Positions 16,661 to 30,042 of a stretch of DNA of 64,000 bases are shown here, piece by piece. How positions within the stretch are numbered: position 1 is the first letter of the stretch; each line of letters begins with the position of its first letter. The notes under the pieces are model-generated. The model had not been told where the DNA came from. It did no database searches and saw nothing but the letters and a program-made list of their open reading frames with translations. A program made the translations under genes and the position numbers. Origin of the DNA: Syntrophorhabdaceae bacterium (GTDB lineage Bacteria > Desulfobacterota > Syntrophorhabdia > Syntrophorhabdales > Syntrophorhabdaceae); contig OY762209.1 in assembly GCA_963665295.1 (NCBI GenBank), positions 2,816,001-2,880,000 on the forward strand, read 5' to 3'.

Positions 16661-16985
16661 AGAAGGCGCGACCGCGCGAGAGCCGGGCACGTGATCGGAT
16701 GGCCTTCCGAAGGGGCTCCCACGCCCCTCTTCACACACCTTATTGTATACAAAACAATCTCATGTTTTACCGGAATTGATCCACAAGTGGGCGATTTACG
16801 GTCATACGGGCCGCAGGCTTATTCAACTTCTTCTTGACAATTGCAGTCAACTTAAAATAATATAAAGCGGGTTTGAAATGTGTTGCACGGAAATAATCGG
16901 GGGGAAAGATTTTTACCGCGCCGGGCCGGAAACATCCGGTTCTTTGGCAATAAATCTCCTTTCATACCAGTGGTAGTGAACCGGG

Positions 16986-17014
16986 CCGACAGGCTGAAGG
17001 CAGAATACTATAAT
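16986..17014 (+). promoter_or_regulatory. Sigma70-like promoter CCGACA-N17-TATAAT for the polysaccharide operon
   Basis: Exact 17-nt spacer and perfect -10, immediately upstream of the JUMPstart hairpin. Confidence 0.6.
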
Positions 17015-17023
17015 GAATCGTTG

Positions 17024-17054
17024 GGCTGTTACGACAGCCAGCGGCGGTAGCGCA
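17024..17054 (+). promoter_or_regulatory. JUMPstart/ops-like element (hairpin GGCTGT-TACG-ACAGCC followed by GGCGGTAGCG)
   Basis: 10/10 match to the ops core GGCGGTAGCG, in the 5' UTR of a long polysaccharide operon. Confidence 0.8.
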
Positions 17055-17081
17055 TTTATTGACGTTAAGGATGGTTGAAGG

Positions 17082-18056
17082 ATGAAGATATTTGTAACAG
17101 GCGGCGCAGGATACATCGGAAGCCATGTGGTGAAAGCCCTCGGCCGTGAGGGCCACGATATTCTGGTGTTCGATAACCTGTCTACCGGTCACGAGTGGGC
17201 CGTGCTCTGCGGCAGGCTCGTGAAGGGCGACCTTGCCGACAAGGATGCGATTAAGCAGGCGGTGGAATCTTTTTCACCGGATGCGGTTATCCATTTTGCC
17301 GCGTCCATCCAGGTGGAAGAGTCGGTGAGAGAGCCCCTCAAATATTACCGGAATAACGTGATAAACACCCTGAATCTCCTGGATGTCCTCATGGCGCACA
17401 AAGTGAGGTCCTTCATATACTCATCTACGGCAGCGGTATATGGTATACCGGAAACGATGCCCGTCGACGAGTCGGCCCCGTTGAATCCCATCAACCCTTA
17501 CGGCATGTCGAAGGTGATGATCGAGAGGGTCCTCGCCGATCTGGCGGGTGCGTCGGATTTCAAATATATCGCGCTACGGTATTTCAACGTAGCGGGGGCG
17601 GACCCCGAGGGCCGGATAGGGCAGGTGTATAAGGAAGCGACTCACCTTATCACACGGGCGCTCAAGACCGCAAAAGGAGAATTCGGGAAGCTTCTCATAT
17701 ATGGTACGGATTATCCTACGCCGGACGGCACCTGTATTCGCGATTATATCCACGTGGCCGATCTTGCAAGAGCCCACCTCGATGCGCTCAAATACCTCGA
17801 ATCAACAGGAACCACGGGTTCCATGAATTGCGGGTACGGGCACGGGTTCTCGGTCCGGGAAGTGATAGATACGGCAAAGAAGGTGACAGGCGTGGATTTC
17901 CCTGTGGAAGAGGCGGGTCGCAGAGCGGGAGACCCCCCTGCTTTAATGGCGGACAGCACTCGTCTCCGCCGTTTCACGGGCTGGACGCCGCAGCATGACG
18001 ATCTTGAGTTTATCGTCAGGACCGCATGGGAGTGGGAGAGAAACCTGCAGGGGTGA
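17082..18056 (+). CDS. galE: UDP-glucose 4-epimerase, copy 1
   Basis: [16 protein letters not shown]...[35 protein letters not shown]. Confidence 0.95.
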
Positions 18057-27132: not shown

Positions 27133-28168
27133 ACTTGCCGGGATGATACTCGATGATGGGCGTCGTGCTTTTGAAAAGGTCGATCACCGTGCCCTTGAAG
27201 GCAAGAGGATCTTGATCACGGGAGTATCGGGCCTCATTGGGACCCATCTGCTGGCAAGCCTTAATTGCCTGAGGGCAAGAGAGGATATGTCCTTCAAGAC
27301 ATATGGCGTGGTGAACAGCGACCCGGAAGATTACTTCTATGATATTGCTTCATTTGAAGGATCGGAGATGTTGCAGGGCGATTTAACGGACTGCGATTTT
27401 GTTCGAAGTTTGCCGGAATCGGATTTTATTATCCATGCGGCGGGCTACGGACAACCCGGCAAATTTTTGCAGGATCCCGTAAAGACCATCACCCTGAACA
27501 CGGTCGCCTTGTTGGGGCTTTTTGAAAAGGTCGCGGCCGGCGGCAAGCTGCTGTTTCTGAGCACGAGTGAAGTATATGTCGGCGTGCCCCAACCGCCCTA
27601 CAGGGAAACAGAGATAGGTAATACGAATACGGATCATCCCCGGGCCTGTTACATTGAAGCGAAAAGGTGCGGCGAAGCGATCTGCAATGCGTACAGACAA
27701 AAAGGAATAGAGGCGAAATCCGCAAGGGTGTCCCTCGCTTATGGTCCCGGAACGAGGGAAGGGGACAAAAGGGTAATTAACGAGTTCATACAGAGAGGTC
27801 TGAAGGGAGGGATATCCTTATTGGACCAGGGGTATGCCCGGAGGACGTACTGTTACGTAACCGATGCCACGGAGATCATGTGGAATATCCTGCTCAGAGG
27901 CTCGGATGCGATCTATAACGTGGGTGGCTTGTCCAAGGTTACCATACGGGACCTTGCGCAAAAAATAGGCCATTACCTGGATGTGCCCGTGTCTTTCCCC
28001 GCTGATGTGCCTGGTGGTTTGGCAGGCGCACCGGAGGATGTATACGTGGACATGGCGAAGGTTGAAGGGGAATTCGAAAAGAAGGAATATATTGACCTTG
28101 CAGAAGGTCTGAGACGGACCATAGAATGGCAGAAGGTATTTTATGCTGTTCGTAACACGGGAGGATAG
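27125..28168 (+). CDS. NAD-dependent epimerase/dehydratase (UDP-glucuronate decarboxylase-like extended SDR)
   Basis: ITGVSGLIG, IHAAG, STSEVY, RACYIEAKR.GE, YGPG, R..CYV.D. Confidence 0.88.
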   Translation: MNKLAGMILDDGRRAFEKVDHRALEGKRILITGVSGLIGTHLLASLNCLRAREDMSFKTYGVVNSDPEDYFYDIASFEGSEMLQGDLTDCDFVRSLPESDFIIHAAGYGQPGKFLQDPVKTITLNTVALLGLFEKVAAGGKLLFLSTSEVYVGVPQPPYRETEIGNTNTDHPRACYIEAKRCGEAICNAYRQKGIEAKSARVSLAYGPGTREGDKRVINEFIQRGLKGGISLLDQGYARRTYCYVTDATEIMWNILLRGSDAIYNVGGLSKVTIRDLAQKIGHYLDVPVSFPADVPGGLAGAPEDVYVDMAKVEGEFEKKEYIDLAEGLRRTIEWQKVFYAVRNTGG

Positions 28169-28170
28169 AA

Positions 28171-29091
28171 ATGGCTAAAACACTGGTAACGGGTGCGGGA
28201 GGCCTTATCGGCTACGCCACGAGGGGTCTCGGGCTTTCCGACACGGTTTATCTGACAAAGAAGGATGCAGACCTCACCAATTTTGAAGTAACGAAAGCGG
28301 TGTTCAACTTCATCAAGCCGGACAAGGTGATACATTTTGCGGCCCAGGTTGGGGGAATCGGCAGCAATATGGTGCATTCCGGAGAATATTTCCGGAATAA
28401 CCTCATGATAAATATAAACGTTCTTGAGGCGGCCCGCCTAAGCGGTGTGAAAAAACTTGTTTCTTTCATGTCCACCTGTATTTTTCCTGATCAGTGCGAA
28501 TATCCTCTCAATGAAAGGAATATCCATAAAGGCGCACCTCATCCGTCAAACTTCGGGTATGCCTACGCGAAACGGATGCTCGAAGTTCAGAGCGCTGCCT
28601 ACAGAAAGGAATGGGGATGCGATTATATCGTGGTTATCCCCACAAACGTGTATGGCCCCAACGACAACTTCAGTCTCGAAGACGGCCATGTGGCATCCTC
28701 ACTGATACACAAATGTTATCTCGCCATGAAGAACAATACGGACCTTGTGGTGTGGGGAACGGGGACACCCTTGAGGGAGATGGTATATTCGCAGGATATC
28801 GCAAAGTTGGCGATTTGGGCTTTGGAAAATTACGACGAGGACGATCCGATCATACTGTCGACGGGCCTCGAAACGGCGATAAAGAGCATAGTAGAGATCA
28901 TAGTGAAAACGATGGGCTTTAAGGGTAATGTAATATTTGATGAGACAAAGCCGGACGGGCAGTTCAGGAAGCCGTCGGATACGACAAAGCTGAAGAAATA
29001 CCTGCCGGAATTCAAGTTTACCCCTGTGGAAGAAGGCATTGCCGAAACGGTGCAGTGGTTTCTTTCGAACTACCCGAACGTGAGGATATGA
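28171..29091 (+). CDS. GDP-L-fucose synthase-like epimerase/reductase (FX/GFUS-type), paralog B
   Basis: Same motifs as 22896-23816. Confidence 0.88.
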   Translation: MAKTLVTGAGGLIGYATRGLGLSDTVYLTKKDADLTNFEVTKAVFNFIKPDKVIHFAAQVGGIGSNMVHSGEYFRNNLMININVLEAARLSGVKKLVSFMSTCIFPDQCEYPLNERNIHKGAPHPSNFGYAYAKRMLEVQSAAYRKEWGCDYIVVIPTNVYGPNDNFSLEDGHVASSLIHKCYLAMKNNTDLVVWGTGTPLREMVYSQDIAKLAIWALENYDEDDPIILSTGLETAIKSIVEIIVKTMGFKGNVIFDETKPDGQFRKPSDTTKLKKYLPEFKFTPVEEGIAETVQWFLSNYPNVRI

Positions 29092-29094
29092 GCC

Positions 29095-30042
29095 ATGGTT
29101 GATGATTTGAATAACAAACCCGAGAAATCACTTTCCGTCAAGGACTTTGCAGGAGCCTTCGGAGAGGAAATAAGTCCCTTTGTGGCCAAAAGAATCGGCG
29201 AATATGGATTCCGGTACGTCGAATTTACGGACGAGGAAAGGGATGGACTTTTAAAGAGAATAGTCGAGACCCTGCTTGACCCGAATCTCATGCAGTCGGG
29301 CGATCACCGACTCGAACAATGGGAGAAGGGTTGGGGAGAGAACCTGGACCTCATTTTGCAGCGCCCCGAAGATTCCCAATCGATTATTCCCAAATATTTC
29401 AGCAAATATGGTGCAATTCGATGGCGTGAGCGCTTCATTCGCCCTGTTTCCGAGCAGTTCGAATACCGCTCCCTTGCGATTATACAGGACTGGCTTTTCG
29501 ACCGGTACCTCCGGGATGCCGGCGCCATTTACGAGTTTGGCTGCGGAACGGGGTACAATCTGCTCAGGGCCCGCGAATTCAATCCCACGGCGAGCCTGTG
29601 GGGCATGGATTGGGCCACGTCGTCTCAAAAGATCATAGAGGAATTGGCCCGGAACGGCATTGACCCCGATATTCACGGCAAGCGTTTTGATTATTTCAAT
29701 CCCGATGATTCGTTTCAATTGGCTCCGGACGCCGTGGTATACACTGTGGCATCTCTGGAGCAGGTAGGTGCCCGATGGGACAAGTTCGTGGACTATATCC
29801 TCCGGAACCGTCCCAAGCTTTGCATCCATATCGAACCTGTGGGAGAGTTGCTGAATCCCGACAAGTTGATCGATTATCTGTCAATCGAGTACTTCAAAAA
29901 GCGCAACTACCTGCAGGGTTTCCTCAATGGCCTGCGACAACTCGAAAGGGAGGGGAAGGCGCGAATCCATCGCGCTCAGCGCAGCTACATCGGAAGCCTT
30001 TTTATTGAAGGATATTCGGTAATAGTCTGGTCTCCGGTCTGA
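29095..30042 (+). CDS. Class I SAM-dependent methyltransferase
   Basis: IYEFGCGTGYNL motif I, G.DW, SLEQ. Confidence 0.8.
   Translation: MVDDLNNKPEKSLSVKDFAGAFGEEISPFVAKRIGEYGFRYVEFTDEERDGLLKRIVETLLDPNLMQSGDHRLEQWEKGWGENLDLILQRPEDSQSIIPKYFSKYGAIRWRERFIRPVSEQFEYRSLAIIQDWLFDRYLRDAGAIYEFGCGTGYNLLRAREFNPTASLWGMDWATSSQKIIEELARNGIDPDIHGKRFDYFNPDDSFQLAPDAVVYTVASLEQVGARWDKFVDYILRNRPKLCIHIEPVGELLNPDKLIDYLSIEYFKKRNYLQGFLNGLRQLEREGKARIHRAQRSYIGSLFIEGYSVIVWSPV

Follow-up and report, generated by a model that had tools for sequence, protein, structure and literature searches.

How can two adjacent copies of the head of a polysaccharide operon be identical in some stretches and strongly diverged in others, and does such an arrangement switch the surface glycan? 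The question is raised by a stretch of 64,000 nucleotides (hereafter, the window) from a Syntrophorhabdaceae bacterium (GCA_963665295.1, contig OY762209.1, positions 2,816,001 to 2,880,000), which is probably a syntrophic anaerobe, judging from a nearby housekeeping gene with named homologues in Syntrophorhabdaceae, Syntrophus and Syntrophobacterales, and whose genome is a single contig of 5.51 Mb (98% complete, 2.4% contaminated). In the window, 2 blocks, A and B, follow each other in tandem. Both begin with a promoter region and galE and continue with a split transketolase-like gene pair (tktN and tktC), a short-chain dehydrogenase/reductase gene (SDR), a GDP-fucose-synthase-like gene (FX-A and FX-B, respectively) and a methyltransferase-like gene (MTase), the SDR and MTase of block A being stubs. 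Block A additionally carries manC', gmd and fcl between galE and tktN. Our analysis suggests that the locus probably consists of 2 versions of a mobile sugar cassette of 5 genes that diverged long ago and now lie in tandem, each behind a promoter and galE, with the identical patches stemming from recent RecA-type copying between the blocks, and we predict that it works as a composite operon rather than a switch.

Identical patches within older homology

Comparison of the window with itself by BLAST revealed only 3 repeats, all direct and on the plus strand. The first, R1, spans 1397 bp at an offset of 7269 bp, with a single mismatch (position 18104) that leaves an exact repeat of 1389 bp (16715-18103 and 23984-25372). 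The second, R2, is 1852 bp long and 100% identical, at an offset of 4420 bp, and the third covers the FX genes (22885-23816 versus 28160-29091), with 84.7% identity over 932 bp. The block layout, the lengths and offsets of R1 and R2, and the gene identities put forward in the initial annotation of this DNA were all recovered in the self-comparison and in the family searches. The region 16400-31000 has no match in the rest of the genome beyond its own 3 repeats and hence contains no repeat resembling an insertion sequence (IS). No recombinase or transposase family was recognized near the repeats among the 40 open reading frames (ORFs) scanned of the 136 listed in the window, and hairpins at the junctions are unremarkable (z-scores of −1.7 to 0.8). 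GRINS, a class of repeats with intense nucleotide skews, are marked by a strong skew in GC and TA that is limited to the repeats themselves. R1 and R2 do not show this mark, their GC skew (0.085 and 0.089, respectively) falling within the range of neighboring segments (0.05-0.19).

The FX pair tells of a much older separation. Between FX-A and FX-B, 31 of 306 amino acids differ, in agreement with the initial annotation, and 98 codons carry silent-only changes, with dS (synonymous divergence) of 0.99, dN (nonsynonymous divergence) of 0.046 and a dN/dS of approximately 0.05. Whereas 54 of 121 four-fold degenerate sites differ between the FX genes, none of the 436 such sites in galE, tktN and tktC does, although approximately 194 differences would be expected at the FX rate. 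Thus, a single recent duplication, already judged insufficient from the sequence, is excluded, the repeats being free of differences at an FX dS of about 1. The MTase stub, previously described as old, differs from the block B gene by 26 of 90 nucleotides and 12 amino acids in its last 30 codons, compared with 0 and 6 amino acids for 2 intact homologues from elsewhere. At first and second codon positions, 12 of 60 sites differ in the stub; the corresponding figures are 31 of 612 for FX (P = 1.5e-4) and 0 of 60 for an intact outside homologue, indicating that FX-A was under purifying selection while its neighbor decayed. Within FX, no conversion patches were inferred, as the gene shows an even level of identity throughout and its longest identical runs measure 34, 32, and 32 bp. 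Three of the 4 ends of the identical tracts meet non-homologous DNA.

The layout is backed by read depth. Five runs from 2 studies contain the stretch. X1 and X2 represent one sample and X3 another; all 3 are evenly covered and were used for depth ratios. X4, from a third sample, and X5 are very unevenly covered (bins of 0 to >1000 and 0.4 to 530, respectively) and were left out of the ratios, X5 being used at the whole-stretch level only. Depth was taken per contig and is therefore coarse, variants below about 10-15% being invisible. In X1/X2/X3, the unique pieces have depths of 24.7/27.5/9.2 (manC'-gmd-fcl), about 26.7/32.1/10.3 (FX-A), 27.3/31.3/10.4 (A-B junction) and 27.3/30.1/10.7 (spacer unique to block B), alongside flanks at 25.2 and 26.3 in X1 and at 10.9 and 9.3 in X3. 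In all 3 runs, R1 (49.8/59.4/19.4) and R2 (49.6/57.2/18.5) are 1.82-1.96 times as deep as the unique pieces are on average. This comparison, proposed from the start as one that could overturn the layout, gave single depth for every unique piece and the junction and nearly double depth for the repeats. Accordingly, the suggestion that 2 strain variants had been merged in assembly does not hold: a chimera of haplotypes at half depth is ruled out by the single depth of the unique pieces, and the junction contig occurs in 3 samples. Consensus polishing is also an unlikely source of the 100% identity, since in 3 runs each repeat is a single continuous contig without alternative letters.

Origin of the second cassette

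The gene order tktN-tktC-SDR-FX-MTase recurs in 2 Omnitrophota genomes, a Parcubacteria (Patescibacteria) genome, a genome of the same family (G008) and several metagenome contigs. Variants exist as well: L027 has gmd-fcl upstream of tkt-tkt-FX and lacks SDR and MTase, which is the content of block A, L048 has nearly the same DNA as L027 and also lacks SDR, and G452 lacks FX. The recurrence of the same order in distant lineages, together with the variants with missing genes, suggests that the cassette is mobile and modular. No description of it was found in the literature, although most subscription papers lay outside the search. Among relatives, matches from the same genus have 67-76% DNA identity. 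Two same-genus genomes carry, at the corresponding location, a glycosyltransferase (GT) gene of family GT2 followed by gmd-fcl, without a visible duplication, and DNA comparison did not find the same tandem in 40 relatives. Close matches to tktN are present in 6 of 68 other genomes of the family, one match in each, and a search of 400 other genomes from the phylum did not detect the FX subfamily at E 1e-90. Three viral contigs (L052, L053, and L055) also carry tktN-tktC-SDR-FX, with gaps between the genes, and in L053 SDR and FX align in several pieces. In the Omnitrophota loci L024:11895-16838 and L025:12632-15313, pairs of 1.3-kb paralogs (85% and 73% DNA identity, respectively) lie directly 3' of the same cassette.

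We propose that a second version of the cassette came to adjoin the first, that internal deletions then removed SDR and MTase from block A while FX-A stayed under selection, and that R1 and R2 were subsequently overwritten, through either gene conversion or cycles of duplication and deletion, 2 routes that end in the same sequence and are indistinguishable here. The result would be half-locked: a crossover in R1 would delete the only gmd and would likely be selected against, and a crossover in R2 would bring back an ordinary single operon. The R2 segment should therefore persist only if it is young or if the inner promoter or the extra dosage is useful.

The complementary gene content had been read as reciprocal gene losses. 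This applies to block A, in which remnants of SDR and MTase are present, but block B shows no trace of the coding DNA of manC', gmd, or fcl. The spacer of block B matches the gmd-fcl spacer over 17 bp (p 0.04 relative to the whole block) and the fcl-tkt spacer over 34 bp (p 0.17-0.31 relative to the whole block, 0.007 locally), and control spacers scored equally high (1 of 38, at 28 versus 26), leaving a loss from B unproven. Block B may have lost these genes; given the lack of a coding remnant and the weak spacer matches, perhaps it never had them. In block A, the junction DNA weakly resembles the spacer 3' of the block B MTase (p 0.005-0.03), the 3' tail of SDR shows no significant likeness to its counterpart in B past the last dozen bases (p 0.73), and the estimate of when MTase was lost within the A branch is too noisy to date it.

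The initial annotation had further posited that a related cluster was captured and then homogenized by gene conversion. Recent homogenization of old homologues is the simplest account of the data, whereas capture from a related lineage appears only slightly likelier than an old duplication in place as the origin of the second copy. The lean toward capture follows from the expectation that perfect repeats would by now have led to the loss of an old redundant segment between them; it is also favored by four-fold-site divergence (K), which is 0.49 between FX-B and a metagenome copy (L030) and 0.70 between FX-B and FX-A, and by the block A-like gene content of L027. Several observations weigh against our interpretation. 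FX-A, FX-B, and L030 form a trichotomy, in which the grouping of B with L030 has low support and a clade of A and B is compatible with the data (approximately unbiased [AU] test, p 0.41), FX-A is the best protein match of FX-B (90% versus 89%), and the rarity of the subfamily in the phylum would fit one acquisition followed by duplication. The genomes compared belong to other species and do not show the ancestral state, and the proposed history does not account for the escape of FX from overwriting. Finally, none of the contigs listed spans a whole repeat, such that the unique pieces owe their order to the assembly, and the runs, the library type of which is not on record, may include the source sample.

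The strongest competing explanation, which we nevertheless hold to be unlikely, is an old tandem duplication in place, kept because FX-A has a specific function, namely the synthesis of another sugar product; galE and tkt would have undergone concerted evolution throughout, and FX would have escaped once the deletions had isolated it. It would account for a dN/dS of 0.046 in FX next to a decayed MTase stub, for identical tracts that run into non-homologous DNA on 3 of 4 sides and for the rarity of the FX subfamily in the phylum, and a fully neutral history of the stub is compatible with the data (P 0.12). However, FX-A and FX-B have all catalytic motifs in common, and of the 31 positions at which they differ, 4 are in columns at least 90% conserved among 118 homologues and 27 in less conserved ones; comparison of motifs and conservation thus gave no sign of changed specificity in FX-A. 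Moreover, selection on FX-A could date from a donor genome, and without strong selection, perfect 1.85-kb direct repeats would be expected to have eliminated an old segment lying between them.

Loop-outs, glycan switching and genome background

The proposed tandem of diverged cassettes predicts 2 crossovers with different consequences. Recombination between the R1 copies would remove 7269 bp including the only gmd, upstream of the GT10 and GT11 genes. The loss of GDP-fucose expected by the initial annotation is reasonable, gmd being single-copy, and such a loop-out would probably cripple the glycan. Recombination between the R2 copies would remove 4420 bp and leave P-galE-manC'-gmd-fcl-tktN-tktC-SDR-FX-B-MTase; as anticipated, the second promoter, its ops-like motif and one FX paralog would be lost, in addition to duplicate genes only. 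Given the shared catalytic motifs and the paucity of differences in conserved columns, a changed glycan after R2 loop-out is unlikely. The further claim that these loop-outs could switch surface glycans is not supported: both are one-way deletions, the R2 product has a complete pathway and no deficit in depth marks either of them.

No subpopulation with either loop-out is visible in contig depth above about 10-15%, the junction and FX-A not being below the spacer or the flanks, and short contig joints (sides of 20-56 letters), which were not used, matched neither loop-out; a crossover within identical repeats creates no new short junction in contigs. In 3 of 3 runs, depth over the gmd block is 9-14% lower than over the block B spacer, and it is 0.91-0.96 of that of the flanks, which is within noise; a few per cent of conversion of the gmd block to the spacer would give such a deficit, and we take this as a hint at most.

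We consider it unlikely that the locus is a recombinase-free contingency locus, with repeats kept for RecA loop-out or amplification yielding other glycans or glycan amounts. Both repeats are long, nearly or fully perfect, and direct, recA is present in the genome, the only gmd lies between the R1 copies and upstream of GT10 and GT11, the manC'-gmd-fcl contig is consistently shallower than the spacer, and the duplicated capsule locus of Haemophilus influenzae can be lost and amplified. Yet R1 loop-out should lower FX-A and the junction as much as gmd, whereas neither is lowered, the junction and the spacer having nearly the same depth, and gmd itself is close to the flanks. Besides, the deletions are one-way, every step is kept in the R2 product, and the 2 FX proteins share their catalytic motifs and differ mostly at variable columns.

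Metabolic operons elsewhere in this genome contain similar identical tracts. Self-comparison of the genome yielded 429 near-identical matches, of which 17 are tracts present in 2 copies with a length of at least 800 bp and an identity of at least 99%, including R1 and R2. Four of the 15 other tracts abut collinear homology of 69-96%. For instance, one dispersed metabolic operon (C1:4701319-4708356 = 5382935-5389972; L066/L067) has 7038 bp at 100% beside 3.7 kb at 81%, and another (C1:1598967-1602006 = 4833302-4836341; L068/L069) has 3.0 kb at 99.6% beside 69%. Hence, the patchwork is a habit of the genome, seen in metabolic operons too, rather than special to the glycan locus. The genome also contains several multi-copy elements of 1.1-1.9 kb with 99-100% identity, some of which form head-to-tail arrays (period, approximately 1948 bp), as well as an exact 273-bp tandem array at C1:419304-421584.

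Mismatch repair normally limits recombination between diverged DNA. A search for MutS_I gave no match in the source genome or 40 relatives (41 of 41 genomes of the order searched), and MutL and NucS gave no match over the cut-off in the source genome, which suggests that the order may be without known mismatch repair; the literature matches listed included no relevant account of such a loss in this group. On a bolder scenario, which we likewise consider improbable, operon-sized copying between paralogs would be routine in an order without MutS/MutL or NucS, and the locus would act as a contingency device in which RecA deletes or amplifies the GDP-fucose block or the inner promoter and the block B spacer overwrites manC'-gmd-fcl, producing rare glycan variants that escape phages. 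Least probable is an assembly artefact in which strain variants were merged, or unique pieces were mis-ordered or belong on a circle: the graph allows other paths, no listed contig covering a whole repeat, but the unique pieces are at flank depth and the repeats near double in 2 samples of very different depth, the junction contig is found letter for letter in X4, and the genome forms one largely complete contig with little contamination.

The genes and signals of both blocks are compiled in Table 1. The motif in both copies of R1 is presumably ops-like; a stand-alone RfaH-like NusG paralog, the N-terminal domain of which matches RfaH best, is encoded far from the polysaccharide locus (L071:2247-2759, C1 near 199900). 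ManC is split, its guanylyltransferase half lying at C1:2727532-2728581, approximately 107 kb from the cupin half. Against NF047922 (GDP-L-fucose synthase Fcl, cut-off 500 bits), fcl, FX-A, and FX-B score 269, 228, and 234 bits, respectively, all below the cut-off, but their proteins contain the NAD-binding, S-x-C and YxxxK motifs and may function like Fcl. The rest of the locus (30429..53959, plus strand) encodes GT10 and GT11 glycosyltransferases, heptose-pathway-like genes, an initiating transferase, Wzz, an export protein, and YjbH. Within it, 34789-39289 encodes a 977-aa fusion of SDR, nucleotidyltransferase, GmhB-like phosphatase, and a further C-terminal part, followed by a GHMP kinase and a SIS isomerase, a probable GDP-heptose pathway. 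ORFs 47060-47599, 43132-44400, 31433-32953, and 12860-13597 have no Pfam or NCBIfam match; judging from position, the 506-aa and 422-aa ORFs without a family match probably encode the flippase and polymerase.

Table 1. Genes, signals, repeats and junctions of blocks A and B, in positions of the window.
Feature	Position	Strand	Basis or remark
Sigma-70-like promoter match, 11/12	16834..16863, repeated 24103-24132	+	Consensus match only
ops-like motif	17043..17053, repeated 24312-24322	+	In both R1 copies
galE copy A / copy B, identical, both intact	17082..18056 / 24351-25325	+	Passes NCBIfam cut-off
manC', C-terminal cupin half only	18139..18534	+	Family match
gmd, probable start 18586	18538..19755	+	Over NCBIfam cut-off; genome's only copy over it
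fcl-like GDP-fucose synthase	19813..20919	+	~70% identical to gmd-adjacent gene in 2 same-genus genomes
tktN / tktC copy A, split transketolase-like pair	21031-21834 / 21831-22712	+	Family matches
tktN / tktC copy B	25451-26254 / 26251-27132	+	Inside R2 copy B
SDR stub of block A, 62 codons, internal deletion	22705..22893	+	First 158 nt identical to B
FX-A, intact GDP-fucose-synthase-like paralog	22896..23816	+	Purifying selection versus FX-B
MTase stub, decayed 3' remnant, last 30 codons	23834..23923	+	Comparison with block B MTase
SDR, intact, block B	27125..28168	+	Best solved match UDP-glucuronate decarboxylase, E 3e-30
FX-B	28171..29091	+	Best solved match annotated GDP-L-fucose synthase, E 1.4e-99
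Methyltransferase-like gene, intact	29095..30042	+	No Pfam/NCBIfam match; class I SAM-MTase look-alikes in Atlas
R1 copy A (promoter region, ops-like motif, galE, 3' hairpin)	16715..18111	+	1389-bp contig, ~double depth, 3 runs
R2 copy A (tktN, tktC, SDR first 158 nt)	21011..22862	+	Self-comparison, contig depth
A-B junction DNA	23924..23983	+	351-bp contig spans it in 4/4 runs
R1 copy B (second promoter, ops-like motif, galE copy B)	23984..25380	+	Self-comparison, depth
Spacer unique to block B, 50 bp, where A has manC'-gmd-fcl	25381..25430	+	118-bp contig, single depth, 3 runs
R2 copy B (tktN, tktC, SDR start)	25431..27282	+	Self-comparison, depth

If our preferred explanation, 2 cassette versions in tandem with recently copied patches, is correct, the locus would offer a read-supported snapshot of the rebuilding of a polysaccharide locus, caught after 2 versions of a mobile cassette had merged in one operon and before the redundant 4.4 kb was lost. 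It also cautions that the age of a duplication cannot be read from 100% identity. If loop-out or conversion alleles existed and altered the glycan, they would provide an environmental anaerobe with surface variation without a recombinase.

Comparison with known systems

No case closer than the following 3 was found in the literature, most subscription papers lying outside the search. In the cap-b duplication of H. influenzae, the locus is flanked by IS1016, often with a 1.2-kb bexA deletion, and capsule is lost at 0.1-0.3% (10.1101/543454; PMC13732712). As in that system, direct repeats lie in a surface-polysaccharide locus, one copy bears an asymmetric deletion and recombination could lose or amplify the unit. 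Unlike cap-b, in which the whole locus lies between IS1016 copies, here the repeats are 2 identical patches of the operon head without an IS-like repeat, diverged paralogous DNA separates them, and no loss or amplification is visible in depth, which resolves about 10-15%. Judged by whether the sole copy of a needed gene lies between the repeats, as in cap, R1 does bracket such a gene (gmd), whereas only FX-A and the second promoter are unique between the R2 copies.

In Neisseria meningitidis, cps regions D and D' (galE1/galE2-rfbBAC) include a galE duplicate ascribed to capture of an incoming locus, and their near-identical parts recombine (PMC5349592); these are inverted repeats, the reversible inversion of which was seen by PCR in culture, and galE2 is truncated (PMC5349592; PMC10745880). 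The window shares with D/D' a galE-containing duplicate with near-identical parts, but here the repeats are direct, both galE genes are intact and a crossover deletes. In SNAP, duplications are locked by the loss of single-copy genes from different copies (PMC7055797; PMC9016547). Similarly, the complementary gene content of our 2 tandem copies restricts the viable segregation products, but the lock covers R1 only, the R2 product retaining every pathway step, and the copies do not derive from one recent duplication, as the FX dS of about 1 attests.

Ectopic gene conversion and concerted evolution of bacterial paralogs produce identical tracts within older homology that end at indels or non-homologous DNA. 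The window shows the same picture of identical tracts in much older homology between the same 2 blocks. What departs from the usual case is that the tracts include a promoter and are interleaved, which creates 2 crossovers with unequal outcomes. The process that most likely produced the patches is already known, and this locus would be an example of it.

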